Shown here: positions 8,287-33,622 of the stretch, in pieces | Position numbering within the stretch: the first letter of the stretch is position 1 | How the letters are laid out: each line of letters begins with the position of its first letter | From: Gemmatimonadota bacterium | Lineage (GTDB): Bacteria; Latescibacterota; UBA2968; UBA8231 | DNA: 64,000 nucleotides | NCBI GenBank assembly: GCA_018672475.1 | Contig: JABHFS010000154.1 | Coordinates: forward strand, 9,640-73,639 | Direction: 5' to 3' | Notes under the pieces: generated by a model | Seen by the model: only the letters and a program-made list of their open reading frames with translations | Told to the model about the DNA's origin: nothing | The model's database searches: none | Position numbers and translations under genes: made by a program

Positions 8287-8574
8287 GGGAGGCTCGTGGT
8301 TGATGGTCTTGGTTGGCGGTGTGCCCGCTTGCTCATACCGCGCCCTGCGGGCGCCTCGCCGACCATCCCTAGTCGGCTCCGAGGGGCGGTCTAATCCGAT
8401 TTTGCAATCCTGCAAGATCGGGACAACAAACCGCTGCGGAGGCATGCCTCCAACCAGCCCTGGTAGCTGGCGAGTTTAACTGCTGGACCATATTAGTACG
8501 GAATTGCGAGGGGGGTGTCCAGCAAGTGGAATGAATTGTTGTGGGGTGGAGGTGCTTTGGCTACTATATCCGGC

Positions 8575-9846: not shown

Positions 9847-9910
9847 GTGCGCATTTTCCCTTTGAAGGATGCGTAATAATCCTTGTTGTTCGTCCCCCCG
9901 TCCCTTAGTT

Positions 9911-10000
9911 ATGTTGTTGAAAAAAATACTACTCCCACTATTTATAACCCTTGCAGTCAGTGCCTTCTGTCCTTTATATATACTGCTATTATGTCATTGA
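9911..10000 (+). repeat. partial duplication of the substrate-binding protein 2 start / signal-peptide coding segment (29-codon uORF MLLKKILLPLFITLAVSAFCPLYILLLCH)
   Basis: Nt 9911-9950 and 9991-10030 align at about 32/40 identity (atgttgttgaaaaaaatactact... vs atgtcattgaaaaaaatactact...). Confidence 0.5.
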
Positions 10001-13954: not shown

Positions 13955-14941
13955 ATGTTAAAGAAACTGCTGCTGTTTTCCTTTGTCGCGCTTATGGCCT
14001 GCGGGCAAGAGGAAAGCGGGCCGAAAAAAATAAAAATCGGCTATGTGATCAACTTTATGTCGCACGAGTGGTACCAAAATATCAGTAAGTCGGCCATCGC
14101 GCGCGCGGCGGAGTTGGATGTCGAACTGCTCGTCGCGGATGCTAACCTCGATGTCGCGGCACAGATTTCTAAGGCCGAGAATTTTCTCGCGCAGGGCGTC
14201 GACGTGTTGATCTTGTCACCGGTCGACGCCAAGGCAATGGGGCCGATCGTGCGCCAGGCTAAGGAGGTCGGCGCGCGCGTCTTCACCGAGTCGAACCCGG
14301 TGCCAGGCGCCGACAGCTATGTCGGAATCGACAACCACGTCGGCGGAGTTAAGGCGGGGGAGTGGTTTGTCGAATATGCCAGGGAGAAGGGGATCGAGCC
14401 CAAGATCCTGGTGATCGGCTTGCCGAACTTTGAGGATTGCCGGCAAAGGGTCGACGGCTTTAAGGAGGCGCTCGAAAAGGGGGGTATGGCCTATGAGATC
14501 GTGCAGGAGGTCGATGGACAGGGGATGAAGGAGAAGGCGTTCAAGGCGGCGCAGGACGCGCTGACGGCGAACCCGCAGATCAATGTGATCTACGGGATCA
14601 ACGACGATTCGACGACCGGCGGTATGGCGGCCTATAAGGCGGCGGGCCTAGACGAGTCGAAGTTGACGGCCATTGGTTTTGGTTTTGAGGGCACGGTGGG
14701 GCAGGCGGCGTTGACCGGCGATACGACCTACCGGGCGGCGCTGGCGATGTTTCCCAATTTTGTTGGCGCGTCTTTGGTCGACGCGGCGGTGAAACTGGCC
14801 AAGGGCGAAGAGTTGCCGCCGCATTACGAGACGCCGACTATCGTGCTTACCCGCGATAATATCGATCAGTTCTACGATCGCAGCACCGAGCCGCCTTTTG
14901 CATTGAAGACGGACGCGGTGCGGGCGATGATGCCAAAATGA
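13955..14941 (+). CDS. periplasmic sugar-binding protein (RbsB/LacI-family fold, CUT2 ABC)
   Basis: Signal peptide plus periplasmic-binding-protein type I pattern (KIGYVINFMSHEWYQNI..., GVDVLILSPVD). Confidence 0.8.
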   Translation: MLKKLLLFSFVALMACGQEESGPKKIKIGYVINFMSHEWYQNISKSAIARAAELDVELLVADANLDVAAQISKAENFLAQGVDVLILSPVDAKAMGPIVRQAKEVGARVFTESNPVPGADSYVGIDNHVGGVKAGEWFVEYAREKGIEPKILVIGLPNFEDCRQRVDGFKEALEKGGMAYEIVQEVDGQGMKEKAFKAAQDALTANPQINVIYGINDDSTTGGMAAYKAAGLDESKLTAIGFGFEGTVGQAALTGDTTYRAALAMFPNFVGASLVDAAVKLAKGEELPPHYETPTIVLTRDNIDQFYDRSTEPPFALKTDAVRAMMPK

Positions 14942-15921
14942 GCAAGATTTTTTCACGGATTTTTCACAGTGAGCAGGCCGGTTTGTTATTGGCGTTGCTC
15001 GTGCTCTGTTTGGTTATTTCGCTGCTGTCGCCAGTTTTTTTCACCGCGATTAATATCAAGAACGTGCTGCGTGACGCCTCGCTGATCGCCATCGCCGGAA
15101 TCGGTATGGTGATGATTATCCTACTCGGTGAGATCGATTTGAGCGTCGGCTCGACGCAGGCGGTGGCTGGGGTCATTGCGGTGGCGGTGCTCAACCAGAT
15201 GGACAGCGTGTGGTGGGCGTTATTGGCGGCGCTATTGGCCGGGGCATTAGTGGGTTTGTGCAATGGGCTGCTGGTGACCAAGGCGGGCATTAATTCGTTG
15301 ATCGCGACGCTGGGCACTATGGCGATTTTGCGCGGCGGGGCGATGGTCAGCACCCAGGCGGTGTCGATCCAGGGCAAGGTCGAAGGTTTTGTCGAGGTGG
15401 GCACTGGGTATTTGGGGCCGGTGCCAATACCGGTGTTATTGGCCTTCTTGCTTTTTGGACTATTCTATTACGTGCTGCACCATACGATTCTCGGCCGGTA
15501 TATATACGCTATCGGCGGCAATATTCAGGCGGCCCGGCTTTCGGGTTTGGCCGTCGACCGCACGCGAGTTCTGGTTTATGTGATCGGTGGGGTGCTGGCG
15601 GCGTTGAGCGCTTTTATTTTGGCCTCGCGGCTCAACTCCGGGCAACCGAACGCGGGTTTGGGTTTTGAGTTACAGGTCATCGCGGCGGTGATCCTCGGCG
15701 GTATTAGTTTGACCGGCGGGATCGGGACTTTGGGTGGGGCCTTTATCGGGATTCTGATCTTGACGGTGCTCTCCAATGGTTTGGTACTGCTCAATGTGTC
15801 GTCCTTTTACCACGATATTGCGCGCGGCGCGGTGATTATCCTGGCGGTATATCTCGATACTCGGCGCAAGCAGAGTTTGCTGCGGCGTCTGTTGGCGCCC
15901 CCATCCGAAAGCAATTCATGA
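14938..15921 (+). CDS. ABC sugar permease (RbsC-like)
   Basis: Branched-chain/ribose permease family topology. ATGA overlap with the upstream substrate-binding-protein gene. Confidence 0.85.
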   Translation: MSKIFSRIFHSEQAGLLLALLVLCLVISLLSPVFFTAINIKNVLRDASLIAIAGIGMVMIILLGEIDLSVGSTQAVAGVIAVAVLNQMDSVWWALLAALLAGALVGLCNGLLVTKAGINSLIATLGTMAILRGGAMVSTQAVSIQGKVEGFVEVGTGYLGPVPIPVLLAFLLFGLFYYVLHHTILGRYIYAIGGNIQAARLSGLAVDRTRVLVYVIGGVLAALSAFILASRLNSGQPNAGLGFELQVIAAVILGGISLTGGIGTLGGAFIGILILTVLSNGLVLLNVSSFYHDIARGAVIILAVYLDTRRKQSLLRRLLAPPSESNS

Positions 15922-17408
15922 CGCCATTAGTTGAGCTCGTCGGTATCCACAAGCGCTTTCCTGGGGTCTATGCACTCAAGGGCGTGGACTTCGACGTGCG
16001 GGCCGGCGAGGTGCACGCGCTGGTCGGCGAAAATGGCGCGGGCAAGAGCACGTTGATAAAGGTCGCGGCCGGGGTGCATGATTTCGAAAAGGGCAGCTAC
16101 CGTATCGCGGGGCAGGCGGTGGATATCCGCCATCCGCGCCAGGCCCTCGACGAGGGTATCGCGGTGGTCTACCAGGAGTTGGAATTGGTCTTGTCGTTGT
16201 CGGTGGCGGAGAATCTATTCTTCGGGCGCTTGCCGCACGATCGCGGTGGCCGGGTGCGTTGGGGCGAGCTCTACGACGAGTCGGAGAAGCTATTGGCGGA
16301 GGTCGGGCTGGAGGTCGATCCCAAGACCAAGGTTGGGCACTTGGGCGTGGCGGCGCAGCAATTGGTCGAGATCGCGCGGGCGTTGTCGTTTGCGGCCAAG
16401 GTGATCATTATGGACGAGCCGACCTCGGCGCTGAGCCCGCGTGAGATCGAGAAACTCTTTGTGCTGGTTGCCCGGCTCAAGGCGCGCGGCGTGGGGCTGG
16501 TCTATGTCTCGCACAAGCTCGACGAGATTATGGCGTTGGCCGACCGAGTCACGGTCTTGCGCGACGGGCAGCGGGTCGCCTGCAAAGAGACCGTCGACCT
16601 CGATGAAGATCGATTGATCGAACTGATGGTCGGGCGCGAGTTGGGGCAGGGTTTTCCCGCCGCCGGGCGCGAGCCGGGTGAAAACGTGTTGGAGGTGCAG
16701 GGGCTGACGACGGATCAGGTGCAGGATATTTCTTTCCGGGTTTGTGCGGGGGAGATCGTTGGTTTTTCTGGATTGATGGGTGCGGGCCGTACCGAATTGG
16801 CGAGGGGCTTGATGGGGGTGGACCGGCGGTTGGCCGGTTCGGTGGTGATTGCGGGGGTGCCGGTGCCGGCTAATAAACCGCCGGCGGCGCGGAATTTGGG
16901 GCTTGGGTTGGTGCCGGAAGATCGGCGGGCAGACGGGGTTTTTGCGCAATTGAGCGTGCGCGAGAACACGAGTGTGGCAGCGCTGGAACAATTCTGCCGT
17001 CTGGGGTATGTGCAGGGTGGGCTTGAGCGGCGGCAAGTGGGCGGGCTGGTGGAGCGGCTCAAGGTGCGCACGCCGGACCAGGAACAGGAGATGGCCAAGC
17101 TCAGTGGCGGCAATCAGCAGAAGGCACTATTGGCCCGTTGGCTGTTAAAAGAAAACCTCAAAGTGTTGCTGATCGACGAGCCGACTCGGGGTATCGATGT
17201 CGGCGCCAAGGCCGAGATTTACCAATTGTTGGACGAATTGGCGCGCGGTGGTTTGGCGGTGGTATTGCTCTCGTCGGAAATGCCGGAGATACTAGGGCTA
17301 TGTGATCGAATTTACGTGATGAGCCAAGGGCGGATCGCCGCCGAATACGGGCGGGCGGAGGCCACGCCGGAAAAGCTTCTGGCCAGTGCCTTGCCGAATG
17401 TATATTGA
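15918..17408 (+). CDS. sugar ABC ATP-binding protein with duplicated ABC domains (RbsA-like)
   Basis: Two Walker A sites (GENGAGKST / GLMGAGRTE) and two signature motifs (LSGGNQQK). Confidence 0.9.
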   Translation: MTPLVELVGIHKRFPGVYALKGVDFDVRAGEVHALVGENGAGKSTLIKVAAGVHDFEKGSYRIAGQAVDIRHPRQALDEGIAVVYQELELVLSLSVAENLFFGRLPHDRGGRVRWGELYDESEKLLAEVGLEVDPKTKVGHLGVAAQQLVEIARALSFAAKVIIMDEPTSALSPREIEKLFVLVARLKARGVGLVYVSHKLDEIMALADRVTVLRDGQRVACKETVDLDEDRLIELMVGRELGQGFPAAGREPGENVLEVQGLTTDQVQDISFRVCAGEIVGFSGLMGAGRTELARGLMGVDRRLAGSVVIAGVPVPANKPPAARNLGLGLVPEDRRADGVFAQLSVRENTSVAALEQFCRLGYVQGGLERRQVGGLVERLKVRTPDQEQEMAKLSGGNQQKALLARWLLKENLKVLLIDEPTRGIDVGAKAEIYQLLDELARGGLAVVLLSSEMPEILGLCDRIYVMSQGRIAAEYGRAEATPEKLLASALPNVY

Positions 17409-17427: not shown

Positions 17428-18084
17428 ATGAACGACGGGCAAGAGGGCACAGTGCGGGTATTGCTCAAAGACCAGGCCTATGAGAATCTGAAAAAGCTCA
17501 TTCTCGAAGAGGTGTTCGCGCCGGGGACAGTTCTCTCCGAGCGGCAATTGGCGGCGCGGTTGGATATGAGCAAGACCCCGATCCTCTCGGCGTTAGAGCG
17601 GCTGGAGACGGAGGGGTTTGTCGCGGTGTCGCCGGAGCAGGGGATCGTAGTAAGGGAACCGTCGTTGCGCGAGATCGTTGACCTCTTCGATATTCGCATC
17701 GCGTTGGAGGTTTTTGTAGTGCAGTCGATCGCCGGGCGACTGAACTCCGAGCAGATTAGTCGGCTACAGGCCAACTTGCAGCCGCAAGCCCGGGCCGCGC
17801 AAGCTAAGGATTTGGTTGAGTGTACGCGTTTGGACGCGGATTTTCATTTGCTGCTCTGCGAGTTTTTAGATAACCGAGAGATTCTGCAGGTGATGCGCGG
17901 GTTGCGCGACAAACTGTATCTGGTGGTGCTGGGGTTGGTGCGGTCGGATACGGGGCGGCTGATGATCAGCTATGGGGAACATGAGGCGATTGTCGAGGCG
18001 GTGGTGAAGGGGCAAGGTGAGGAGGCGGCTAGGCGGTCGAAGGAGCATTTGGAATATGGTAAGAACTTTTTAGTAACGCGGTAG
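17428..18084 (+). CDS. GntR-family transcriptional regulator (FadR/FCD subfamily)
   Basis: N-terminal wHTH (LSERQLAARLDMSKTPILSALERLETEGFV) plus a C-terminal FCD-like helical domain. Confidence 0.85.
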   Translation: MNDGQEGTVRVLLKDQAYENLKKLILEEVFAPGTVLSERQLAARLDMSKTPILSALERLETEGFVAVSPEQGIVVREPSLREIVDLFDIRIALEVFVVQSIAGRLNSEQISRLQANLQPQARAAQAKDLVECTRLDADFHLLLCEFLDNREILQVMRGLRDKLYLVVLGLVRSDTGRLMISYGEHEAIVEAVVKGQGEEAARRSKEHLEYGKNFLVTR

Positions 18085-18196: not shown

Positions 18197-20110
18197 ATGC
18201 CGTCTAAAAAAGTACTCTGCCATGGCGTGGAGGATATGGCGGAGCGGATACAGTTACGGGTGGGGGCGTTGTCGATGATTTTTGAACCGCAATTGGGCTT
18301 TTTGCGCTATATGACTTATGGGGGCAAGGAGATTTTGCGCGGGGTGTATGCGGCGGTGCGTGATCGCAACTGGGGTACGATCGAGCCGCGGGTGAGCATG
18401 GTGGAGTTGCAAGAAGAGGACGAGGGGTTTGTGCTTTCGTTTGATGTTGAGTGCATAAGTGGGGATGTGGATTTTTTCTGGCGGGGGAGAATCGTCGGTG
18501 AGCCGGGGCGGGTGGAGTTTTCGCTGGATGGGATTGCACGAAAGAGTTTTTCCCGTAATCGACTGGGTTTTTCCGTGTTGCATCCGGCAGAGTGCGCAGG
18601 GCTCGCGTGCCGGGTGGGAAAGGTGGACGGCACGGTAGAGGAGGGTGTGTTTCCGCTATTGATATCACCGCACCAGCCCTTTATGGACATGAAGAGCATC
18701 GCGCACGAGGTCGACGGAGTACGGAGCGAGATCACTTTCGCTGGGGATATCTTTGAGATGGAGGACCAGCGCAATTGGACCGATGCTTCGTATAAGACCT
18801 ATTGTACGCCGCTGGCATTGCCCTTTCCGGTCGATGTGGCAGAAGGCGAGGTGATCCAGCAGACGATTGTGATTGAGGTCGAGGGGACAACGGATATCGT
18901 TGATGAGGATCGGGGGTGCGTATTATTGGCGGTGGAGTCGATTGGCGGGGAGAACTTGATGCATATCGGCTTGGGTCTCGCTAGTGACGCGGGGGAGTTG
19001 AGCGAGGTCGAGTTGGCGCGATTACGCGCGTTGAATTTGTCGCATCTGCGTGTGGATTTGCACTTGGCCGAGCAGGGGTGGCAGACTGTGCTGGCCCGTG
19101 CATGGCGGGAAGCCGAGGCTTTGGCCATTGGGCTTGAAGTAGCGATTTTTGTCAGCGATGCGGCGGCGAGGCAACTGGCGGAGCTGGCCGGGGCATTGGA
19201 TGGGGTGGATATTTGTCGAATACTGGTTTTTCACGAAGATGAGAAATCCACGACGGCGGGGTGGGTGAACTTGGCGCGGGAGTATTTGAGCGGGTTGCAG
19301 GTGCCCATCGGCGCGGGCAGTAACGACTATTTTACCGAACTCAACCGCGAGCGGCCGCCGGTTGAGGTGTTGGATTTGGTCAGTTATTCGCTCAACCCGC
19401 AGGTGCACGCCTTTGATGACGTTTCACTGGCTGAAACGCTTATGATGCAGATGGTAGTAGCGCATAGCGCGCGACAGTTTTGCGGCGATTTGCCGCTTTG
19501 CGTGTCGCCTGTGACGCTATTACCGCGTTTTAACCCCAATGTCACCGGCGCGGAGCCCGAGCCGGGTCCAGGCGATTTACCGCCGCAAGTTGACGTGCGG
19601 CAGATGTCGCTTTTTGGCGCGGGGTGGACGGCGCTCAGCCTGAAGTATTTGGCTTTGCGGGGGGTGGCGAGCAGCACTTATTACGAGACGAGCGGTTGGC
19701 GCGGGGTAATGGAACGCGCGGAAGGCTCGGCGCTGCCGGAGGTTTTTCAGTCGATCGCCGGGGCCGTCTTTCCGCTCTACCACGTATTGGCCGATGTGGG
19801 CGAATATGCGGGTGGCAAGGTCTTTCCGGTGCATACTAGTGACCTGTTGCGGGTCGACGGAGTGGCGTTGGTCAAGGGCGAGCGGCGGCGGCTTTTGCTG
19901 GTCAATCTGACGGGGGAGACCGTGGCGGTACAGATCTCGGGTTGGACTGGGGCGGCGTATGTGGTGCAGCTCGACGAACGCAATGTCGAGCGGGCGATGA
20001 GCGAGCCCGAGGTGTTTCGCGCGGAGCAGGGGGTGCGGTATGTGCGAGTCGAGTCGCTTGATCTGTTGCCCTATGCGGTGACGCGTGTCGATTTGGAGGT
20101 GGATTCGTGA
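18197..20110 (+). CDS. conserved-looking protein of unknown function (637 aa)
   Basis: Long ORF with coding-like composition in the same orientation as the flanking operon. No family was recognised by eye; the central part has TIM-barrel-like alternation. Confidence 0.6.
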   Translation: MPSKKVLCHGVEDMAERIQLRVGALSMIFEPQLGFLRYMTYGGKEILRGVYAAVRDRNWGTIEPRVSMVELQEEDEGFVLSFDVECISGDVDFFWRGRIVGEPGRVEFSLDGIARKSFSRNRLGFSVLHPAECAGLACRVGKVDGTVEEGVFPLLISPHQPFMDMKSIAHEVDGVRSEITFAGDIFEMEDQRNWTDASYKTYCTPLALPFPVDVAEGEVIQQTIVIEVEGTTDIVDEDRGCVLLAVESIGGENLMHIGLGLASDAGELSEVELARLRALNLSHLRVDLHLAEQGWQTVLARAWREAEALAIGLEVAIFVSDAAARQLAELAGALDGVDICRILVFHEDEKSTTAGWVNLAREYLSGLQVPIGAGSNDYFTELNRERPPVEVLDLVSYSLNPQVHAFDDVSLAETLMMQMVVAHSARQFCGDLPLCVSPVTLLPRFNPNVTGAEPEPGPGDLPPQVDVRQMSLFGAGWTALSLKYLALRGVASSTYYETSGWRGVMERAEGSALPEVFQSIAGAVFPLYHVLADVGEYAGGKVFPVHTSDLLRVDGVALVKGERRRLLLVNLTGETVAVQISGWTGAAYVVQLDERNVERAMSEPEVFRAEQGVRYVRVESLDLLPYAVTRVDLEVDS

Positions 20111-20408
20111 GTGGTCTGAGAAGTGGGTTGGTCGGTTGCGCTGGGCGCCGATTATGAGTTGACGGTGGTGCGGGGAGCCCGAGGTGCACAAGCAGCGAGT
20201 ACCGCCGCTCGAGCGGGCTTGGAGCGAAGCGCCGGGCACGGCGATACAGAGATAGCGTGGTCGCTGACCCAACAGCATTGCGTCGACGCGTTGCGGGCGG
20301 GAGAGTCGCCCGAGACTTCTGCAGCCGATAACTTGCGCACGTTAGAATGGGTCTTCGGCGCCTATGTATCCGCGGCAACGGGTCTGCCTTATCGTATGGG
20401 AGAATCAA

Positions 20409-21662
20409 ATGGCGACTGAACGCGTCATAGCGACGTATCTGATCGAAACGCCGTATTCGCTACAAGAAGCGGCAGAGGTATTGGCCGGTGAGCAGTCGAG
20501 TGGGACTTTTGTTTCAGTGCCGGGGGAGACCGATGAATTGCGGGAAAGATTCCGGGCGAGATTGGAATCGCTGCAAGAATTAGAGCCGGTGGCCGAGCCG
20601 AGTTTGCCCGGGGGAAAAGTGCCGGAGGGTGTTGCCCAATATCGCCGGGCGCGGATTGAGGTTTCCTTTTCCCTGGAGAATATGGGGGTTAACTTGCCGA
20701 CGCTTGTCGCCACGGTGGCGGGCAATCTTTTTGAGCTGCGCGAGTTTTCCGGGCTCAAGTTATTGGATATAGAACTACCGCAGGATTTTGTTGCCCGCTA
20801 TCCGGGTCCACAATTCGGCATCGCGGGCACCAGGCAATTGGCCGGGGTGGAAGCACGACCGTTGATTGGTACTATCGTCAAACCGAGTGTGGGGCTGAGT
20901 CCGGCGCAGACGGCTGAGTTGGCCGGGGAGTTGGCCGGGGCGGGCATCGATTTTATTAAAGACGACGAATTGATGGCCGACCCGCCGCACTCTCCACTCA
21001 AAGAGCGGGTAGAGGCGGTGATGAAGGTCCTCAATAAGCACGCCGATAAGACGGGAAAGAAGGTGATGTATGCCTTTAATATCAGCGATTCGCTGGAGGC
21101 AATGTATCGCCACCACGATATCGTGCAGGCGGCGAGTGGCACCTGCGTGATGGTCAGTTTGAACAGTGTGGGGTTGGCGGGGGTCGAGGCTTTGCGTGGC
21201 CGGGCGAGTTTGCCGATCCACGGGCACCGTAATGGTTGGGGCATGTTGAACCGGCACCCGGCGTTGGGTATTGAGTTTACGGCCTATCAGAAGCTGTGGC
21301 GTCTGGCCGGTGTCGACCATCTGCACGTCAATGGTCTGCAGAACAAATTCTCCGAATCCGACGAGTCGGTAGTGCGTTCGATCAAGGCCTGTCTCGAACC
21401 CTTCTTGGGGGGGTATCATCTGATGCCGGTGATCTCCTCGGGACAATGGGGTGGCCAGGCGCCGGAGACCTATCAATTGACCAAGACGGTCGATCTGATG
21501 TATCTGGCCGGTGGCGGCATGATGGCGCACCCCGGGGGGCCGGCGGCGGGTTGTGCGGCGATCCGCCAGGCGTGGGCGGCGGCGGTTAAGGGGGTCGAAC
21601 TCGCCGACTATGCCCGCGAACACGAAGAGCTACGGCTCTCAATTGAGAAATTTGGAGGCTGA
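20409..21662 (+). CDS. RuBisCO-like protein (form IV RLP, RuBisCO large-subunit homolog)
   Basis: GTIVKPSVGLS (RuBisCO KPKLGLS), DFIKDDE (K201/D203/E204), IHGHRNGW (H294/R295), DHLHVNGLQNKF (K334 loop 6) and LAGGGMMAHPGG (C-terminal phosphate site). RBS gggaga 7 nt upstream. No rbcS, prk or cbb genes nearby. Confidence 0.85.
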   Translation: MATERVIATYLIETPYSLQEAAEVLAGEQSSGTFVSVPGETDELRERFRARLESLQELEPVAEPSLPGGKVPEGVAQYRRARIEVSFSLENMGVNLPTLVATVAGNLFELREFSGLKLLDIELPQDFVARYPGPQFGIAGTRQLAGVEARPLIGTIVKPSVGLSPAQTAELAGELAGAGIDFIKDDELMADPPHSPLKERVEAVMKVLNKHADKTGKKVMYAFNISDSLEAMYRHHDIVQAASGTCVMVSLNSVGLAGVEALRGRASLPIHGHRNGWGMLNRHPALGIEFTAYQKLWRLAGVDHLHVNGLQNKFSESDESVVRSIKACLEPFLGGYHLMPVISSGQWGGQAPETYQLTKTVDLMYLAGGGMMAHPGGPAAGCAAIRQAWAAAVKGVELADYAREHEELRLSIEKFGG

Positions 21663-22597
21663 TGAACTATCGCAAGGCAGTGCGCGCGGGGATCGAGTTG
21701 TCGCAGGTGGGTTTGGGCTGTAACCGTTTGGGAGAAGAAGGCAAGGACGATCGGCATTGGATCGATTTGGTACAACGCGCAGTCGAATTGCGGATTAATA
21801 TTTTTGATACGGCGCAAGGGTATGGCGGCGGTCGCAGCGAGCAGATCTTGGGCCAGGCCCTGGGCAATCGCGACGACGTGTATGTGGCGAGCAAGATCGG
21901 CCATAGCGAGGGGGGCTTTACGCCGGAAGAAATGGCGCGGAAAATCGAGATGAGCCTGACCCGGCTCCAACGGGATCGTGTCGATATACTGCAATTGCAC
22001 AGCCCGAGCCGCGAGGAACTCGAGCGTTATGATTGGGCCGAGGGCATGCAGCGGTTGCAGGATGCGGGCAAGGTCGGTTTTAAGGCGATGGCGTTGGATT
22101 CAGTCGAGTCGGCGGTGTGGCTGATCCGGCAGGATGTCGTCGATTTTATGCAGATCACCTATAACATTTTTGATATCGAGGCCGAGCACGAGCTCTTTGC
22201 CTTGGCCGAAGAAAAGGGAGTGGCGTTGCTGTGTCGTTTGCCGCTCGCGCAGGGAGTGCTGACGGGTAAATTTTCGCCCGGGCGGGATATGGGCGATCAT
22301 CGCGCGCGCTTTTCGGGGCCGCGGTTGGCCGCCAGGGTTGAAATGGCCGAGACGCTCAGACCATTGGCTGAGGCCTATCCCGGCGGGATGACGCGGTTGG
22401 CACACGATTTCAGCTTAGGGCCTGTCGCGACGACCTGTATTATCCCCGGCGCGCGGGATGTGGTGCAATTGGAGGAGAATACGGCGGCGGGCGAGGGCAC
22501 GGGTGTCGATGCGGCCACACGGGCCGAGGTCGAGCAATTGCGCCGGACTTGGGGTGAGTGGGCGGGCGGGTATTGGTTCCCGCAACAGCCGGCGTAA
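21662..22597 (+). CDS. aldo/keto reductase
   Basis: AKR signature (IFDTAQGYGGGRSEQILGQAL) and the start overlaps the RLP stop codon. Confidence 0.85.
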   Translation: MNYRKAVRAGIELSQVGLGCNRLGEEGKDDRHWIDLVQRAVELRINIFDTAQGYGGGRSEQILGQALGNRDDVYVASKIGHSEGGFTPEEMARKIEMSLTRLQRDRVDILQLHSPSREELERYDWAEGMQRLQDAGKVGFKAMALDSVESAVWLIRQDVVDFMQITYNIFDIEAEHELFALAEEKGVALLCRLPLAQGVLTGKFSPGRDMGDHRARFSGPRLAARVEMAETLRPLAEAYPGGMTRLAHDFSLGPVATTCIIPGARDVVQLEENTAAGEGTGVDAATRAEVEQLRRTWGEWAGGYWFPQQPA

Positions 22598-23964
22598 TGG
22601 ATCTGCGGCTCGGTTTTTACGGTGATGATTTTACCGGCTCGACCGATGCGTTGGAGGCGCTAAGCACGGCGGGTTTGCGCACGGTGCTTTTTATTGAGCC
22701 GCCGACTGCGGAACAGTTGGCGCGTTTTCCGGGTTTAGAGGCGGTAGGAGTAGCGGGGCGCACGCGTTCGTTGGCGACGGGGGATATTTCGGCTGAACTC
22801 AGGCCGGTTTTTGCGCGTTTCGCCGAGTTGGGCTGTCCGCTGGTTCACTACAAAACCTGTTCGACCTTTGATTCTTCGCCCGAGGTAGGCAGTATCGGGC
22901 GGGCTATTGATGTGGGGCAGGAGATTTTTGCCTCGCCATTTGTGCCACTGGTCGTGGGCGCACCGGTGTTGCAGCGCTTTTGTGTCTTCGGCAATCTCTT
23001 TGCGCGCTCGGGGCTCGATAGCGAGATCTTTCGCCTGGACCGGCACCCGACGATGCGCCAGCATCCGGTTACGCCGATGCACGAAGCGGATCTGCGCTTG
23101 CACCTTGGGCGGCAGACCGAGCGGCAGATCGGGCTTTTTGATGTGCAGGCGCTTGCTTTATCGCAACGCGAAAGGGAGGTGGCACTCGACGCTCTATTGG
23201 CCGAAGGCGCGGAGATCGTGCTATTCGATGTATTGACCGATGAGCACTTGCAGCGCATTGGTCAATTGCTTTCCACGCGGGCGGAGCCCGGTAAGACCTT
23301 ATTCGTCGCCGGGTCGTCGGGGATCGAATATGCGTTGTGCCAATATTGGGGGGTGGGTAATTCGCAACTCCCGGCCGGCGGCGCAGCGGTGGATCATGCG
23401 CTGGTGGTGTCGGGCAGTTGTTCGCCGGTGACCGAGCGACAGATCGCGCGGGCGCTGACCAAGGGCTTTGCCGGTGTAGCGGCCGATACGGCACTTTTGG
23501 TCCAAGGCGGACCGGTAGCGGAGGCCGAGACGGCGCGCTTGGTGGTGGAGAGTTTAAAGGCGCTCGAAGCGGGAAAAAGTCCCTTGGTGCATACGGCTCT
23601 GGGGCCTGCAGACGAACGAATCGGTGCGACGGCGGCGAAACTTCAGGCGATGGGCTATGATCTCTTAGATCTCAAGTTGAAAAGCGGCGAGATCTTCGGT
23701 CGGGTGCTTGGCAATATAGTGCAGACGATTTTTGCGGGCACGGGGCTTCGTCGCGCGTGTGTAGCCGGCGGTGACACTTCGACCTATGCGGCGCGGCAAT
23801 TGCGCATCGAAGCTCTGGAGATGGTCGGGCCGATGGCGCCGGGCTCGCCGCTGTGTCGGGTTTCCGCAGCGAACGGAGTAATCGACGGAGCTGAAATCAC
23901 GTTTAAAGGTGGCCAGGTGGGGCGCGACGACTTTTTTACTTCTGTATTGAAAGGAAAACCATGA
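22597..23964 (+). CDS. four-carbon acid-sugar kinase family protein (DUF1537 N-domain + DUF2090 C-domain; OtnK/OiaK-like)
   Basis: N-terminal LGFYGDDFTGSTDALEAL motif typical of DUF1537 kinases. The start is coupled to the AKR stop by a taATGg overlap. Confidence 0.8.
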   Translation: MDLRLGFYGDDFTGSTDALEALSTAGLRTVLFIEPPTAEQLARFPGLEAVGVAGRTRSLATGDISAELRPVFARFAELGCPLVHYKTCSTFDSSPEVGSIGRAIDVGQEIFASPFVPLVVGAPVLQRFCVFGNLFARSGLDSEIFRLDRHPTMRQHPVTPMHEADLRLHLGRQTERQIGLFDVQALALSQREREVALDALLAEGAEIVLFDVLTDEHLQRIGQLLSTRAEPGKTLFVAGSSGIEYALCQYWGVGNSQLPAGGAAVDHALVVSGSCSPVTERQIARALTKGFAGVAADTALLVQGGPVAEAETARLVVESLKALEAGKSPLVHTALGPADERIGATAAKLQAMGYDLLDLKLKSGEIFGRVLGNIVQTIFAGTGLRRACVAGGDTSTYAARQLRIEALEMVGPMAPGSPLCRVSAANGVIDGAEITFKGGQVGRDDFFTSVLKGKP

Positions 23965-24803
23965 CAGATAAAACAACGGTAGCTATTTTCGGCGCGGCCG
24001 GCAGTATGGGGACGCGTTCTTCGAATGCGCTCAAAAACGATTTGGTCTATGATGTGCTCTATGTGGAGGCTGGCAAGGAGGGAATGGCTCGGTTGCGCGA
24101 GCGGGGTGTGGAGCCGACAGAGCAGGCGGTGGCGCTCAAACAGGCTGAAGTGATCGTGCTGGCGGTGCCCGACGCGCTGATCGCTACTGTCGCTGCCGAG
24201 ATTGTGCCCGAGATGCAGAGCGGGGCGATGCTGATTGGGCTTGATCCGGCTGCACCACATGCTGGGCGTCTGCCCGAGCGCCAGGACGTGAGCTATTTCT
24301 TTTCACACCCTTCGCACCCGCCGATCTTCAACGACGAGACGGAAGCCGAGGCGCGCAGGGATTTTTTTGGCGGTGTGGCGAAGCAGTCGATCGTCAGCGC
24401 CCTATTGCAGGGGCCGGAAGAAGATTATGCCAAGGGCGAGGTGATCGCCAGCAAGCTCTTCGGGCCGATCCTGCGTTCGCACCGGATCAGCATCGAGCAG
24501 ATGGCGATCTTGGAGCCAGCGCTTTCCGAGACGGTGACGGCGACCTGTTTGACGGTGATCCGCGAGGCGCTGGACGAGGCGGTCAAGAGGGGTGTGCCGG
24601 CCGAGGCGGCGCGGGATTTCCTTTTGGGCCACCTCAACGTCGAGCTGGCGATTCTCTTCGACGAGATCGACTGGGAGTTGTCGGACGGGGCGAAGGAGGC
24701 GGTCGCCGACGCGATGCCGGTTATTTTCCAGCCGGATTGGAAGAAGGTCTTTGATGCCGAGCAGCTACTGGTGTCTACACGCAAGATCACTGAGATCAAA
24801 TAG
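23961..24803 (+). CDS. NAD(P)-binding dehydrogenase (6-phosphogluconate/3-hydroxyisobutyrate dehydrogenase-like Rossmann fold)
   Basis: VAIFGAAGSMG glycine-rich motif followed by AEVIVLAVPD. ATGA overlap with the kinase gene. The C-terminal half is divergent. Confidence 0.55.
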   Translation: MTDKTTVAIFGAAGSMGTRSSNALKNDLVYDVLYVEAGKEGMARLRERGVEPTEQAVALKQAEVIVLAVPDALIATVAAEIVPEMQSGAMLIGLDPAAPHAGRLPERQDVSYFFSHPSHPPIFNDETEAEARRDFFGGVAKQSIVSALLQGPEEDYAKGEVIASKLFGPILRSHRISIEQMAILEPALSETVTATCLTVIREALDEAVKRGVPAEAARDFLLGHLNVELAILFDEIDWELSDGAKEAVADAMPVIFQPDWKKVFDAEQLLVSTRKITEIK

Positions 24804-24811
24804 GCGAGGTT

Positions 24812-25909
24812 ATGAAAGAGACGATATTGCAGTTCGGTGGTGGCAAGTTCCTGCGCTCCTTTGCTGATTTCTTCGTGCACGAGGCCAACCAAGCCGGGCA
24901 GGAGGTCGGACAGGTCGTGGTGGTGCAATCGACCGATAGTCCACGCGCGCAGTGGCTCAACGCGCAGCAGGGGAAATACCAGGTTTTGGTGCGTGGGTTG
25001 GTGGAAGGCGGACAGGTCGATGAGGCGCGGGAGATCGCTAGTATCAGCCGGGCGTTGGTCGCGAGCCAGCAATGGCCCGAAGTGCTGCAGGTGGCGAGAT
25101 CGGCCGATTTGCGGTGGATCGTCTCGAATGTGACTGAGGCGGGTTATGGTCTCGATGCGGGAGATGTGATCGAGGCGCCGCGTAGCTTTCCTGCCAAGCT
25201 AACGGCGGTGCTCAAGGCGCGTTTTGACGCGGATTTGCCGGGGTTGCCGATTTTGCCCTGCGAATTGATTGCGGAGAATGGCGAGCGATTATTGGAATTA
25301 GTGTTGCAACAGGTGGCGCATTGGAAACTAGAAGATAAATTCGTCGATTGGCTGGGTGGCCAATGTATCTGGCCGAACGCGTTGGTCGACCGCATTGTCA
25401 GCTCGCCGCCCGACGATCATCCGCTGCTGGCGGCGGATCCGTTGCTGGCAGTGGCTGAGCCCTTTGCGCTGTGGGCGATTGAGGAATTCGAAGGTGTAGA
25501 CCTCTTTGAGCATCCGGCGATAAAACTCGTCGACGATGTAGAACCCTATGCGCTGCGCAAGGTGCGGATTTTGAATGGCGCGCATCAGGCATTGGTCTGC
25601 CGCGCGTTAAATCGCTTCGCGACGGTGCGCGAGGCGCTGGCCGACGCGGAGACCGAGGCTTGGTTGCAACAGTTGCTGGCCGCAGAGATCGTGCCGGTGG
25701 TTGATGCGCGTGTCGAGGGGGCTTCGGCTTTTGCCCAGGAAACGATGCAGCGTTTCGCCAATCCTTTCCTCGACCACAAGCTGAGCGATATCGCCGTCTA
25801 TCACGAGCAGAAGATCGAGACGCGGTTGATGCCGACTTATCGCGAATACAAGCAGCACTTTGGTCAAGAGCCGGTGTTACTGAGCGAGATTCTCAAGCCC
25901 TTTTTGTAG
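24812..25909 (+). CDS. mannitol dehydrogenase family oxidoreductase (altronate/tagaturonate reductase UxaB-like), shorter than UxaB
   Basis: Blocks align with E. coli UxaB: ILQFGGGKFLRSF, RWIVSNVTEAG, ILPCELIAENGERLLELVL, NALVDRIV, KVRILNGAHQALV. Confidence 0.75.
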   Translation: MKETILQFGGGKFLRSFADFFVHEANQAGQEVGQVVVVQSTDSPRAQWLNAQQGKYQVLVRGLVEGGQVDEAREIASISRALVASQQWPEVLQVARSADLRWIVSNVTEAGYGLDAGDVIEAPRSFPAKLTAVLKARFDADLPGLPILPCELIAENGERLLELVLQQVAHWKLEDKFVDWLGGQCIWPNALVDRIVSSPPDDHPLLAADPLLAVAEPFALWAIEEFEGVDLFEHPAIKLVDDVEPYALRKVRILNGAHQALVCRALNRFATVREALADAETEAWLQQLLAAEIVPVVDARVEGASAFAQETMQRFANPFLDHKLSDIAVYHEQKIETRLMPTYREYKQHFGQEPVLLSEILKPFL

Positions 25910-26447: not shown

Positions 26448-27575
26448 TTAGACGACCTGTTCTAAGACCTCGGTGAAATTGGCGACTGTGCGCTCGACGT
26501 TTTGCAGTTTGTCGAGGCCGAAGAGCCCGAGACGAAAGGTCTGGAAACCTTCGGGCTCGTCGCACTGCAGCGGCACGCCGGCGGCGATCTGCAGGCCGTT
26601 GGCGGCAAATTTCTTGCCCGTTTGTATCTCGCCGTCTTCGGTATAACAGACGACGACGCCCGGGGCCTGAAAACCTTCGGCAGCGACGCTCTTGACGCCT
26701 TTGTCGGTGAGCGCTGCGCGGATCTTATCCCCGAGCTCTTGCTGTTGTTGGCGTACGGTGTCGAAGCCTATGGCTTCGATTTCGCCCATCACCTTGTGAA
26801 AGGTGGCCAATGCGTCGGTGGGCATGGTCGCGTGGTAGGCGTGGCCGCCATTCTCGTAGGCCTCCATGATCGATAGCCATTTACCGAGGTCACAGGCGAA
26901 GCTGCTGCTGGTGGTGCTGTTAATTTTTTCGCGCGCGGCGGCATTGAGCATGACTAGCCCGCAACAGGGCGAGCCGCTCCAGCCCTTTTGCGGCGCGCTG
27001 ATCAAGATGTCGACGCCGGAAGCTTCCATGTCGACCCATAGCGCGCCCGAGGCGATGCAGTCGAGCACGAACAAACCACCCGCAGCGTGCACGGCGTCAG
27101 CTACCTGGCGGATATAGTCGTCGGGCAGGATGATGCCAGCGGAGGTTTCGACGTGCGGGGCGAAGACCATATCCGGCTTTTCGCTTTGGATCGTCTGCAC
27201 AACCTCCTCGATGGGGGCGGGGGCGAAGGCCGCCTGCGGGCCGTCTTCTACGGGACGGGCTTTCAAGACGGTGGTGCTCGCGGGAATGTTGCCCATATCG
27301 AGGATCTGGCTCCAGCGGAAACTGAAAAAACCATTGCGGATGACCAGGCATTTTTTATCGTTGGCGAACTGGCGGGCGACCGCTTCCATGCCGTAGGTGC
27401 CGCTGCCGGGCACGATGGCGACGGCTTTGGCGTTGTAGACCTTTTTGAGGGTGGCGGAAATATCCCGCATCGACCCTTGGAACGATTGCGACATATGGTT
27501 GAGCGCGCGGTCGGTGAAGACCACGGAGTATTCTAACAGTCCATCGGGGTCGACGTCGGGTAATAAGCCTGGCAT
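26448..27575 (-). CDS. class V aminotransferase (serine-pyruvate / alanine-glyoxylate aminotransferase family)
   Basis: PLP fold-type I with a QK lysine motif (ILISAPQKGWSGSPCCGLV), as in SGAT/AGXT enzymes. Confidence 0.85.
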   Translation of the reverse strand: MPGLLPDVDPDGLLEYSVVFTDRALNHMSQSFQGSMRDISATLKKVYNAKAVAIVPGSGTYGMEAVARQFANDKKCLVIRNGFFSFRWSQILDMGNIPASTTVLKARPVEDGPQAAFAPAPIEEVVQTIQSEKPDMVFAPHVETSAGIILPDDYIRQVADAVHAAGGLFVLDCIASGALWVDMEASGVDILISAPQKGWSGSPCCGLVMLNAAAREKINSTTSSSFACDLGKWLSIMEAYENGGHAYHATMPTDALATFHKVMGEIEAIGFDTVRQQQQELGDKIRAALTDKGVKSVAAEGFQAPGVVVCYTEDGEIQTGKKFAANGLQIAAGVPLQCDEPEGFQTFRLGLFGLDKLQNVERTVANFTEVLEQVV

Positions 27576-31519: not shown

Positions 31520-31831
31520 CTATGCATCGGTCATCGTCGCGCCGCCGCGCTTGCTCAGGGTCGGCGGTATGAGCATCTTGCGCCGCTCGCCGACCCGCAT
31601 GCCGACGATCCTTCGTCGACCCCGGCGATGACCTATTGGCCGCCGCGCGTGCTGTAGAGTGCACCCGTCGGTAAAAGTCGCACCCTCGTGGATAGACACG
31701 TGCTGGCTTGCGCGGGCGGCGGGTCCGGACCCCTTGGTGATTACAGTATAGGAGAGCCCGGACTCTGTGGAAAAGGTCTTGCCCGAACCCACGCAGCCGG
31801 CGACGAGTAATAGCAAGGCCAACGCCCTCAT
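31520..31831 (-). pseudogene. FKBP-type peptidyl-prolyl isomerase lipoprotein, apparently frameshifted
   Basis: Lipoprotein signal MRALALLLLVAGC and an FKBP start (GLSYTVITKGSGPAARASQHVSIHEGATFTDG). Later FKBP motifs occur in other frames (VIAGVDEG in +2; IVGMRVGERRKMLIPP in +1) with an in-frame TAG between them. Confidence 0.4.
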
Positions 31832-32790
31832 TTTTTCTCGATAATCTCTGCTGCCTCAATCCGGTCGACAAGAGCGACCGAGTGCACCACGTCGCGGATA
31901 TCGGTGAGCGGCTGGGTGTTGTTGTTGACGCTGTCGATAAAGTGCTCGTGCATATGCAACAGGCCTTCGTAGGCCGGTATGTCGTTTTCTTCGACACCGT
32001 CGACTTCCCAACCGCCGAGCTTGCGCACCTGATTGTCCTCGTGGATCTCGATACCTTCGGGGATATGCATATAGCAGCCGATGCCGACGCCGTGCAACTC
32101 GGAGCGGATGACTCGGCCGCCGGAGGCGCGGTTGCCGAACATTACACCGGTGGCGTCGTTGTCGAAGCGCACCATCGCGGTGTAGTGGCTAAAACCCTCG
32201 CCGCCGAACTTGTCCTGGTAGGCGGTGACCTCGGTCGGCTCGCCCCCGGCCATATAGCGCAGCAGGTCGACGACGTGGATCAGGTCATTCCACAAGGTGG
32301 TGGTGAATTCTTGGCCATTGGCGAAGAGCTGCTTGTTGAAGGTGGTCGTCGCCAGTGAGACGGGGCCTTTGGCATTGACCAGCCGCATCGCTTCGCGGGT
32401 GACGGCAGTGTGGCGGCGTTGCAGGCCGACCGCGACCCAGACATTGTGCTTCTCTGCCGCTTCGAGGATCTGGCGGGTCTCGTCGCTGTTGGCGCCGGTC
32501 GGTTTTTCGATAAAGAGGTGTTTGCCGGCGGCGATGCAGTCGAGCACCGGTTGCAATAGCCACTTCTCGTGCATGACGCAATAGACGATATCGGGGTCGA
32601 TCTCGTCGAGCATCGTGCGGTGGTCTTTGTAGGTGCGCTCGAAACCGTATTTTCCGACGACTTGCTTTAAGCGCTCATCGTCCAATTCGCAGACGGCGGC
32701 CATCTCGACCCGGTCGGCGAGGCGATGGACCGTGGGATAGTGGGCTTGTAGCCCGCGTCCGCCGGCGCCGATAAATCCCGCTTTTAACAT
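31828..32790 (-). CDS. Gfo/Idh/MocA family oxidoreductase
   Basis: MLKAGFIGAGGRG Rossmann start and a family-typical C-terminal alpha/beta domain. Confidence 0.85.
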   Translation of the reverse strand: MLKAGFIGAGGRGLQAHYPTVHRLADRVEMAAVCELDDERLKQVVGKYGFERTYKDHRTMLDEIDPDIVYCVMHEKWLLQPVLDCIAAGKHLFIEKPTGANSDETRQILEAAEKHNVWVAVGLQRRHTAVTREAMRLVNAKGPVSLATTTFNKQLFANGQEFTTTLWNDLIHVVDLLRYMAGGEPTEVTAYQDKFGGEGFSHYTAMVRFDNDATGVMFGNRASGGRVIRSELHGVGIGCYMHIPEGIEIHEDNQVRKLGGWEVDGVEENDIPAYEGLLHMHEHFIDSVNNNTQPLTDIRDVVHSVALVDRIEAAEIIEKK

Positions 32791-32794
32791 TGCA

Positions 32795-33622
32795 TTACTC
32801 CTTTGTGCGCAGGTTGTTAAAGAAGCGCACGTCGATGCGTGCCAGGTCGATGACGGTTTCGACGGTCTCGCCGCTGTACTCGCTGTGGAAGCTGACGGGG
32901 CCTTTGAAGTCGAGGCGTTCGAGGGTGGCGATTAGAGCCGGCCAATCGCCGAATCCTTGGCCGAGGCGCATTACGCCGACGGAGGGAGGACCCTGTTTGG
33001 TACTGCCGAGGGGGCGTTGGTGGATCAGGTCCTTGAAGGCCAACAGGCTCAAATATTCTTTGACGATATCGAGGGCCATTTCGATCGGCTCGCCGCAAAT
33101 CGAGAGGTGGCCCGGGTCGGCGAAGATGCCGACGTGCTGCGGGTCGCAGTCCTTGACGATATTCATCGCGGCGCAGGAGTTGAGGCCCATGGATTTGCCC
33201 GAGTGGTTGTGCACGACGGTTTTGACGCCGTGTTTGGCCGATAGTGCCTGGAAACCTTCCATATAGCCGCGAATCTTGTCGAGCTGGTCCCAATAGCCTT
33301 TTTCGGGCTCCCAGTACCAGTAGCCGAGTTTGACATGACCAACACCGGCTTCACCCATCGCGGCGTAGTAGGCCTCGGCATAGTCGATATCGGGGCGGTT
33401 GAAATCGCCCGGGGCGGTGACCAAGGGGATCGACAGACCCTGGTCGGCGAAGCGTTTGGCGGCTTCGGGCAAGGCGGTAGCAATATTACCGGGGTTGACA
33501 GGGTAGCCGTCGCGTACACAAAGGTCGGCTCCCTGCACGCCGACCGATTGCAAGGCGTCGATGATGCCCGGCACGTCCAAGCCCTCCAAATGCTTGGTGA
33601 ACATGATATAGGTCAGGTCCAT
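32795..33622 (-). CDS. sugar phosphate isomerase/epimerase (xylose isomerase-like TIM barrel)
   Basis: 275 aa with a TIM-barrel pattern. Conserved H, D and E metal ligands are spaced as in AP-endonuclease-2/xylose-isomerase-like proteins. Confidence 0.75.
   Translation of the reverse strand: MDLTYIMFTKHLEGLDVPGIIDALQSVGVQGADLCVRDGYPVNPGNIATALPEAAKRFADQGLSIPLVTAPGDFNRPDIDYAEAYYAAMGEAGVGHVKLGYWYWEPEKGYWDQLDKIRGYMEGFQALSAKHGVKTVVHNHSGKSMGLNSCAAMNIVKDCDPQHVGIFADPGHLSICGEPIEMALDIVKEYLSLLAFKDLIHQRPLGSTKQGPPSVGVMRLGQGFGDWPALIATLERLDFKGPVSFHSEYSGETVETVIDLARIDVRFFNNLRTKE

Follow-up and report, generated by a model that had tools for sequence, protein, structure and literature searches.

A gene block with a RuBisCO-like protein from an uncultured bacterium as a probable diverged variant of the D-apiose/D-apionate pathway

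Core genes of the 12-kb block

The 64,000-nucleotide (64-kb) stretch of DNA analysed here, hereafter the window, comes from contig JABHFS010000154.1 of a Gemmatimonadota bacterium (GenBank assembly GCA_018672475.1; Latescibacterota in GTDB) and carries a 12-kb block of ten genes, one of which codes for a RuBisCO-like protein (RLP). A preliminary description of the window had read this block as a possibly distinct, undescribed RLP-dependent route for some aldonate or uronate-like substrate. Having compared it with 108 loci taken from annotated plasmids, from 80 GTDB species genomes and from metagenome contigs surrounding homologues, we come to a different view: as judged from its genes, the block is a diverged variant of the known RLP pathway for D-apiose/D-apionate and not an undescribed pathway.

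The open reading frame (ORF) map and the Pfam and NCBIfam scans place all ten genes on the forward strand, and the families first proposed for them, i.e. an RLP, an aldo-keto reductase (AKR), a DUF1537 kinase, two dehydrogenases, a GntR/FCD regulator and a ribose-type ABC importer, proved right. The same holds for the coupling of neighbouring genes by overlapping stop and start codons. The overlap is ATGA between the genes for the binding protein and the permease, the permease and the ATPase, and the kinase and the PGDH_C protein that follows it; it is a single base (TGATG, TAATG) between the RLP and AKR genes and between the AKR and kinase genes; and between the PGDH_C gene and a mannitol-dehydrogenase-family gene, the last of the block, there are 8 nt, with a GAGG ribosome-binding site. 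Promoter and terminator scans gave counts at chance level, with no terminator after 25909, and a search for a GntR operator motif shared between the intergenic regions found none.

For the RLP gene (20409..21662) the ATG at 20409 is a better start than the one at 20364, because a GGGAGA ribosome-binding site precedes it and the resulting length fits the homologues. The product matches Pfam PF00016 (233 bits) and PF02788 (38 bits), both above their gathering scores. In HMMER and MAFFT alignments with the form III RuBisCO of PDB entry 6hun the motifs do fall on RuBisCO positions, as had been supposed: K175, K201-D203-E204, H294-R295, H327, S379, G381, G403-G404 and N123 are aligned and kept, and E60, T65 and the loop-6 lysine K334 were assigned by motif, 6hun being unaligned or misaligned at those columns. 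K177, H298 and G380 are replaced by Ser, Trp and Ser, respectively, as expected of an RLP. Pfam scans of about 50 of the 57 large ORFs across the 64-kb window detected neither rbcS nor prk nor cbb genes, in agreement with the preliminary description. By its domains, its kept metal ligands and its replaced ribulose-bisphosphate residues the product is classed as a form IV RLP, the lack of Calvin-cycle genes in the neighbourhood being the third mark of that class.

The gene upstream of the RLP (18197..20110) codes for a protein of 637 residues that had been left as unknown. It matches the NCBIfam model of the D-apionate lactonase ApnL (NF049900, E 1.5e-87, 294 bits) over profile positions 13-593 of 595, i.e. 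over the full length, and it matches no other NCBIfam model. Pfam returned nothing for it even at E = 1, which is uninformative: the Pfam copy used evidently comes without the Apionate_lact_N/M/C domains (PF25837-9), because the ApnL of Rhizobium etli likewise returns nothing. Relatives of the protein at 60-76% identity bear precomputed matches to exactly these domains. Homology thus identifies the protein as a distant relative of ApnL, with D-apionolactone as its presumed substrate.

The lactonase and RLP genes are 298 nt apart, and this gap holds the remnant of a Gfo/Idh/MocA-type D-apiose dehydrogenase, ApsD (20123..20419, forward strand), recognised by tblastn as a pseudogene with an ORF of 98 codons. 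Positions 20132-20416 match residues 250-343 of the intact Gfo/Idh/MocA protein of locus L007 (45% identity, E 4e-20), and the first 11 residues of that protein find a weak match at 20107-20139. The remnant ORF also matches the C-termini of ApsD from Microvirga and R. etli (E 4e-8 and 3e-7, respectively), and it ends 11 nt inside the RLP gene, just as the intact gene does in L007. An intact ApsD gene does not exist in the cluster; what is left amounts to about 94 C-terminal residues and the weak 11-residue N-terminal match. Other remnants comprise 27 residues in L005, an ORF of 187 residues in L009 and one of 122 residues in L100, i.e. ApsD is found at four different deletion stages across related loci. 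Because remnants occur in the window, L005, L009 and L100, the ancestral operon had the order ApnL-ApsD-RLP-OiaK-ApnO, from which ApsD is being lost in this lineage.

Erosion of the upper pathway is visible across the clade (L005 11254-11778, L006 2984-4894, L013 8773-9458, L009 9377-9940 and L100 7303-7671), and in L006 ApnL is split into two separate ORFs. A second Gfo/Idh/MocA gene of the window (31828-32790, reverse strand), about 6 kb downstream of the block, was considered as a relocated ApsD and rejected, its product being only 21-26% identical to ApsD. The xylose-isomerase-like TIM-barrel gene beside it (both within 31828-33622, reverse strand), considered as a possible OiaC gene, has no NCBIfam match, and its product has no counterpart in the apiose locus of Sinorhizobium meliloti. 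The NCBIfam scans gave no matches to models named ApsD, OiaC, OiaT, ApnO, AplK, AptA/B or ApsI, which we read as missing models.

Directly downstream of the RLP lies the AKR gene (21662..22597; Pfam Aldo_ket_red, 143 bits). D49, Y54, K78 and H113 of the AKR fit the catalytic-tetrad motifs, as motif matches only, and its nearest solved relatives include the L-galactose dehydrogenase of plants, an aldose 1-dehydrogenase. In L100, a metagenome-assembled genome (MAG) of Latescibacterota, an AKR of 66% identity likewise lies between RLP and kinase, and further homologues stand in unrelated contexts. The AKR may be a substitute D-apiose 1-dehydrogenase for the decayed ApsD, for which it is a candidate.

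The DUF1537 acid-sugar kinase (22597..23964; Pfam SBD_N and NBD_C), for which an alternative GTG start at 22558 is also open, is OiaK-like: OiaK (NF042436) is its best model with 449 bits, followed by the 3-oxo-tetronate kinase OtnK with 188 and DtnK with 62. The kinases beside the RLPs of R. etli and Microvirga are 42-45% identical to it. These two kinases (L107 13260-14594 and L105 11254-12645, respectively) themselves fall short of the OiaK cut-off of 700 bits and carry no more specific annotation than "four-carbon acid sugar kinase family protein".

The last core gene (23961..24803) codes for a protein with PGDH_C (197 bits) and KARI_N domains. The preliminary description had counted it, as a Rossmann dehydrogenase, among the accessory enzymes that differ from the apionate pathway; on the contrary, its identity to the PGDH_C proteins in the clusters of R. 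etli, Microvirga and Cupriavidus is 48-54%. It also matches PDB 5t57 with 299 bits, and members of the Microvirga cluster have been named D-apionate oxidoisomerase by JGI/IMG. Both the architecture of ApnO (Rossmann and PGDH_C domains, about 280 residues) and its position next to kinase and RLP are present. By these features the product is ApnO-like, a putative NAD-dependent enzyme of the D-apionate oxidoisomerase family. Of the supposed differences in accessory enzymes the AKR persists, being the only real one inside the pathway, and the 637-residue protein, as an ApnL homologue, does not.

Proposed pathway and the reaction of the RuBisCO-like protein

Taken together, the block is probably an operon for the oxidative catabolism of D-apiose, a branched pentose of plants, or of its acid D-apionate, corresponding to the RLP branch of the pathway of Carter et al. 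2018 as cited in later work, and the preliminary description had rightly linked the pair of RLP and DUF1537 kinase to D-apionate catabolism. The ribose-type ABC system would import the sugar, and D-apiose would be oxidised to D-apionolactone, a step whose ancestral enzyme ApsD is now a pseudogene and for which the AKR is proposed instead. The ApnL-like lactonase would convert the lactone to D-apionate, and the ApnO-like enzyme, assigned by homology as well, would oxidise D-apionate and migrate its hydroxymethyl group, yielding 3-oxo-isoapionate. The DUF1537 kinase would form 3-oxo-isoapionate 4-phosphate. On this compound the RLP, the carbamylated-Lys/Mg site of which is intact, would most likely catalyse an intramolecular carboxyl transfer and then a hydrolysis to 3-phosphoglycerate and glycolate, i.e. 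an OiaT-like reaction; an OiaX-like decarboxylation to L-erythrulose 1-phosphate would be the less likely alternative at this step.

For RLPs of apiose clusters two activities on 3-oxo-isoapionate 4-phosphate are on record, a decarboxylase and a transcarboxylase/hydrolase (Carter et al. 2018, as cited in PMC6302742), and the same source refers to their characterisation in A. radiobacter K84 and X. autotrophicus. The window RLP matches a single named NCBIfam family, OiaX (NF042437), as its best model, over the full length and with 519 bits, which would speak for a plain decarboxylase, the product of which, L-erythrulose 1-phosphate, would be turned into erythrose 4-phosphate by isomerases encoded elsewhere. 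In MetaCyc/UniProt naming the RLPs of the pathway are OiaX and OiaT; OiaC, which the preliminary description had listed as an RLP, is not one.

However, the score of 519 bits stays below that of proteins named OiaX by PGAP (785 bits in R. etli, 782 in Martelella). The RLPs of complete apiose sets in Microvirga and Shinella sumterensis reach 453-472 bits on the same model, and ten other RLPs adjoining DUF1537 kinases 454-544 bits. The OiaX clade is tight, its members being 62-100% identical among themselves and all other proteins less than 50% identical to them. The window RLP shares 48-50% of its residues with PGAP-named OiaX, but 58-60% with RLPs outside OiaX that belong to complete apiose clusters. 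A neighbour-joining tree places OiaX at the base and the window RLP within a large non-OiaX clade, in a subclade that has ApnO/ApnL/ApsD neighbourhoods throughout.

Residues of the active site point in the same direction. The three named OiaX proteins have D60, G123, Q325, Q327 and G or C at 379, whereas the window RLP has E60, N123, H325, H327 and S379, of which E60, N123, H327 and S379 are kept by it and 99 clade members; the OiaX pattern is our own observation from three sequences and not a published definition. In RuBisCO, E60, N123 and K334 contact the carboxyl group. Because all three are retained, a carboxyl-transfer enzyme fits better than a simple decarboxylase. One clade member is named 3-oxoisoapionate-4-phosphate transcarboxylase/hydrolase by JGI, an automatic name and as such weak evidence.

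The isomerases to be expected with a decarboxylase, LerI (TIM family) and DerI (RpiB family), both lie inside the oiaX operon of R. etli, and no homologues of them were found in the 64-kb window or in about 100 related non-OiaX loci. As neither of them accompanies oiaX in Shinella and Martelella, a point in favour of the decarboxylase, this absence is weak evidence and not decisive. Weighing these features, we lean towards an OiaT-like transcarboxylase/hydrolase and regard an OiaX-like decarboxylase as unlikely, with a minor but appreciable chance. NCBIfam holds no model for OiaT, and a tblastn search of the plasmids with the Microvirga RLP returned no Xanthobacter record.

The closest solved structure to the window RLP is PDB 3nwr (455 bits, about 51% identity), a structural-genomics RLP entry, reportedly from Burkholderia fungorum. 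Its active-site pattern is the same (KPxVGLS, DFIKDDE, HxHRNG and the loop-6 Lys), but it falls outside the clade of the window RLP in the tree and has Tyr, not Trp, at 298 and Asn, not Ser, at 177.

Several observations weigh against an apiose/apionate operon or against parts of the route proposed here. All three NCBIfam equivalog cut-offs are missed: the lactonase has 294 bits against 750 for ApnL, on which the canonical proteins of R. etli and Microvirga reach 1049 and 899, respectively, the RLP has 519 against 700 for OiaX, and the kinase 449 against 700 for OiaK. The lactonase is only 31-32% identical to ApnL of Microvirga and R. etli, and the solute-binding protein only 24-26% identical to that of the R. 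etli oiaX cluster, to which it is not orthologous. In L005, the closest relative of the window, and in L006 the AKR is a remnant of 174 residues, and L013 has neither ApnL nor AKR. The AKR may hence be dispensable, being cut short in L005 and absent in L013, and the lineage may instead take up or use apionate directly, since L013 lacks both proteins. RLPs of the same clade are paired with DUF1537 kinases elsewhere in the company of other partners, the OiaT-type assignment is indirect, the RLP having been compared with OiaX and with non-OiaX RLPs of apiose clusters, and the evidence for the block comes from sequence comparison.

Among the cut-offs, that of OiaK is uninformative, because the kinase directly 3' of the named oiaX of R. 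etli scores 476 bits and that of Microvirga 575. Moreover, as same-clade pairs have other partners, the pair of RLP and DUF1537 kinase does not fix the substrate by itself, and the apionate call hence builds on ApnL, ApnO and the ApsD remnant.

Related loci, known systems and competing explanations

The closest named genome is the Gemmatimonadetes MAG of L013, with an RLP 83% identical to that of the window. In L007 (RLP 79% identical) the order ApnL-ApsD (Gfo/Idh/MocA)-RLP-kinase-ApnO (PGDH_C) is intact, and a core is common to L005, L009, L013 and L100; the proteins of L007 and L009 yielded no sequence-cluster names. The same parts list recurs in annotated clusters of R. etli, Shinella, Martelella and Microvirga. 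On plasmid pRetNXC12e of R. etli it comprises NanR, oiaX, the kinase, a triose-phosphate isomerase, an RpiB-family isomerase, the PGDH_C protein, a binding protein, DUF2291 and the ABC genes, as well as a Gfo/Idh/MocA protein, a "hypothetical" protein of 614 residues with 1049 bits on ApnL, and DhaKL. The clusters of Shinella zoogloeoides and Martelella contain a PGAP-named oiaX, and those of Microvirga ossetica and Shinella sumterensis have the full set with an RLP not named OiaX. Across phyla, ApnO-like and ApsD-like proteins remain about 50% identical to the canonical ones. Together with the ApnL and ApnO homology and the ApsD remnant, the full known gene set of close relatives speaks against the undescribed route first suggested, the central claim of which fails by the refuting condition that the preliminary description itself had named.

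With the OiaT pathway, as outlined for Carter et al. 2018 (Nat Chem Biol 14:696), whose OiaT enzyme was characterised from Xanthobacter autotrophicus (PMC6302742), the window has in common a core of ApnL, ApnO, the DUF1537 kinase OiaK and the RLP, to which an FCD-type regulator and an ABC importer for a sugar are added. The likeness extends to the RLP, which clusters with the non-OiaX RLPs of Microvirga and Shinella sumterensis (58-59% identity) and keeps E60, N123 and K334, and to the lack of erythrulose-phosphate isomerases nearby. In contrast to that pathway, ApsD is a pseudogene, an AKR is inserted, the lactonase has diverged from canonical ApnL to the extent given above, the binding protein is not orthologous, a DUF2291 gene is missing, and the host belongs to an uncultured lineage and is not a proteobacterium. 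The OiaX pathway of R. etli pRetNXC12e shares the upper pathway, the kinase and an RLP of the same broad group over its full length, but the window RLP lacks the substitutions of the OiaX clade, stays below the OiaX cut-off and is not accompanied by LerI/DerI genes.

Pathways with DUF1537 four-carbon acid-sugar kinases, in which OtnK acts together with the decarboxylase OtnC, were reportedly described by Zhang et al. in 2016. The window resembles them in its kinase family and in its logic, i.e. an acid sugar is converted to a 3-oxo acid, which is phosphorylated and then broken as a beta-keto acid. It differs in that its kinase scores 449 bits on OiaK and 188 on OtnK, and in that an RLP takes the place of OtnC, the class II aldolase-like partner present in Cupriavidus.

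A distinct and undescribed RLP route for another aldonate or uronate-like substrate, with the AKR and a UxaB-like enzyme as pathway-specific steps, would account for the missed equivalog cut-offs, for a lactonase only about 31% identical to ApnL, for a binding protein unrelated to the canonical one and for the other enzyme sets around RLPs of this clade elsewhere. The persistence of the mannitol-dehydrogenase-family gene beside the ApnO-like gene in four diverged loci fits such a route as well, and the ApnO reaction, if it took place on D-erythronate, would be that of a hypothetical D-erythronate 3-dehydrogenase (2026 paper, PMC12994016). We nevertheless consider it improbable: none of the core genes lacks a counterpart in the apiose set, even ApsD being represented, in decayed form, at its ancestral place, L007 shows the complete canonical order, and the ApnO-like and ApsD-like proteins retain their identity of about 50% across phyla. 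Further, the AKR is decaying in L005, and the mannitol-dehydrogenase-family gene has other partners in loci without an RLP.

A related possibility is that the operon has been rewired in this lineage for a substrate other than free D-apiose, so that the trio of ApnO-like enzyme, kinase and RLP would act on a different acid sugar or polyol-derived acid and, in that case, constitute an undescribed RLP route. This is conceivable because ApsD has decayed repeatedly, the lactonase is very diverged (and lost in L013), and an AKR and a mannitol-dehydrogenase-family enzyme have been recruited; we give it a similarly small chance.

A pathway of the D-hamamelose type (Kim et al. 2018, Ochrobactrum anthropi) has parts that look alike on the surface, i.e. 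a sugar dehydrogenase, a lactonase, a kinase, a dehydrogenase with a phosphogluconate-dehydrogenase C-terminal domain and an RLP. As cited in PMC10176493 and PMC8914248, lactonase, kinase and a decarboxylating dehydrogenase there feed an RLP oxygenase that acts on a ketopentitol bisphosphate, and the window RLP does keep both glycines of the phosphate site. Since, among the sequences compared, the lactonase, the ApsD remnant and the ApnO-like protein specifically match proteins of apiose clusters, such a pathway is very improbable.

The tenth gene of the block (24812..25909) codes for a short mannitol-dehydrogenase-family oxidoreductase of 365 residues (Pfam Mannitol_dh and a truncated Mannitol_dh_C). 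The Mannitol_dh_C match covers only positions 1-112 of 190, i.e. the end of the C-terminal domain is missing, and the protein is one of a large family whose members have about 370 residues. The enzyme had been called UxaB-like. The family is right, but the protein has 341 bits on the tagaturonate reductase UxaB (NF002969, profile positions 16-389 of 482) against a cut-off of 359, and elsewhere it travels with a different gene set. Its gene directly follows the ApnO-like gene in the window, L005, L013, L009 and L100. In loci without an RLP, homologues 57-58% identical to it lie beside PhyH, creatininase-family and aminotransferase genes. Partners of the same kind occur in the window, namely a class V aminotransferase gene (26448-27575, reverse strand) and a PhyH gene (33706-34632), the 77% identical orthologue of which directly follows the mannitol-dehydrogenase-family gene in L009. 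Possibly co-transcribed with the block, the gene is probably part of an adjacent, unrelated module of PhyH dioxygenases and aminotransferase and not of the apiose pathway.

Genes of this module, i.e. those for the mannitol-dehydrogenase-family protein, PhyH, the creatininase-family protein and the aminotransferase, travel together in several phyla (window, L096-L098, L009, L100). In the window PhyH is present as four paralogues, and genes for a PhnW-like class V aminotransferase and an HpcH aldolase occur as well (24812-25909, 26448-27575 on the reverse strand, 33706-34632, 37611-38366 and 39285-40130 on the reverse strand, and 44919-45743).

The AKR and the mannitol-dehydrogenase-family enzyme could together serve a reductive isomerisation of D-apiose via apiitol to apulose, feeding a transketolase route encoded elsewhere in parallel to the RLP route. 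An aldose reductase and a polyol 2-dehydrogenase are a classic pair, two oxidoreductases have been proposed in place of apiose isomerase in Escherichia (PMC13001218), and in L009 and L100, both of which have the mannitol-dehydrogenase-family gene, the cluster is flanked by a split transketolase. However, the scans of the window's large ORFs brought up no candidate for a transketolase or an apulose kinase, L013 and L009 have the mannitol-dehydrogenase-family gene without the AKR, and in RLP-less loci that gene is linked to PhyH and aminotransferase genes. A reductive isomerisation is thus quite improbable, and the oxidative RLP pathway for D-apiose or D-apionate is the reading that we prefer.

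RLPs of the same clade stand in further types of neighbourhood. The commonest consists of RLP, DUF1537 kinase, an Asp/Glu-racemase-family protein and a transporter of the bile acid:sodium symporter family (SBF), without an ApnO-like gene. Examples are L011 10001-14689 on a Rufibacter tibetensis plasmid, L003 10001-19017 in a Pirellulales MAG and about 60 others among L016-L091. It is found in most loci of Bacteroidota, Verrucomicrobiota and Planctomycetota. Often it is embedded in loci for pectin degradation or has an isomerase, a split transketolase and an FGGY kinase no more than 10 kb away. To our knowledge this module has not been described, and it may constitute a further RLP route. Other relatives of the RLP, too, lie beside split transketolase, FGGY kinase and isomerase genes, which together resemble the non-oxidative apiose route.

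In a third type RLP and kinase occur with a short-chain dehydrogenase/reductase ("glucose 1-dehydrogenase"), a TRAP transporter and pyruvate kinase or enolase, mostly without an ApnO-like gene (L093, L094, L095, L106 and L012, on replicons of Rhizobium phaseoli, Burkholderia, Bradyrhizobium, Azospirillum and Cupriavidus). The glycolytic neighbours suggest 3-phosphoglycerate as a product. Finally, Sinorhizobium meliloti 1021 pSymB (351908-373776, L102) has an ApnO-like gene, ABC importer genes, ApsD and ApnL, and neither an RLP nor a DUF1537 kinase was detected within about 10 kb on either side of ApnL; this locus may represent an RLP-independent branch of apionate degradation. On other S. meliloti replicons of pSymB size (e.g. 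that of H90, where the gene is named oiaX) OiaX-clade RLP genes lie about 40 kb from an ApnL homologue.

Importer, flanking genes and significance

The block begins with a ribose-type (CUT2) ABC importer. Its periplasmic solute-binding protein (13955..14941; Pfam Peripla_BP_4, 152 bits) has ribose-type binding proteins as its best PDB relatives and orthologues of 80-92% identity at the same position in L005 and L013. The permease (14938..15921; Pfam BPD_transp_2) and the ATPase with two nucleotide-binding domains (15918..17408; two Pfam ABC_tran matches) follow, each joined to the preceding gene by ATGA; in NCBIfam the ATPase resembles AraG/RbsA, below the cut-offs. Because of the low identity of the binding protein to its R. 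etli counterpart, the ligand of the importer is deduced from gene context. Next comes the GntR/FCD transcription regulator (17428..18084; Pfam GntR and FCD), which presumably keeps the block repressed as long as neither the substrate nor an intermediate is present; FCD-type regulators, annotated as NanR, are present in canonical apiose clusters, too.

Directly upstream lies a second ABC importer (8515-12986) with two SBP_bac_1 binding proteins and two BPD_transp_1 permeases. On its 5' side the reverse strand carries genes for an epimerase, a CBM9-like protein, a glycerophosphodiester phosphodiesterase and a gamma-glutamyltranspeptidase, and a sulfatase gene is located at 842-2293. The region around the second importer is a general carbohydrate-utilisation island. 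The 10-mer CCCCTCCGCT occurs once at 13155, 5' of the ribose-type importer, and once at 25994, just 3' of the last gene of the block; we do not read it as an insertion scar, because chance alone would give about one match of this kind in the intergenic sequence that was compared.

Particular to the copy in the window are the decayed ApsD gene, the inserted AKR, a probable OiaT-type RLP and an uncultured host with apparently marine relatives. The contigs related to it are metagenomic, their JGI and MAG sample identifiers look marine, and their closest named relatives are MAGs of Gemmatimonadetes and Latescibacterota. None of the findings is surprising to a specialist who knows the work of 2018.

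While the RLP route of D-apiose/D-apionate catabolism has so far been characterised in Proteobacteria, the analysis extends it to uncultured lineages. It also offers a view of evolution in progress, with a Gfo/Idh/MocA gene at different stages of deletion in four loci and an unrelated AKR in the operon. The RLPs of this clade are named only "RuBisCO large subunit family protein" and can easily be mistaken for carbon-fixation genes in surveys of MAGs. The residues at positions 60, 123, 327 and 379, in which they differ from OiaX, provide a testable handle on the chemistry that separates a decarboxylase from a transcarboxylase/hydrolase. Apiose is present in the pectins of seagrass and duckweed, and operons such as the one described here may therefore mark consumers of seagrass or duckweed carbon.

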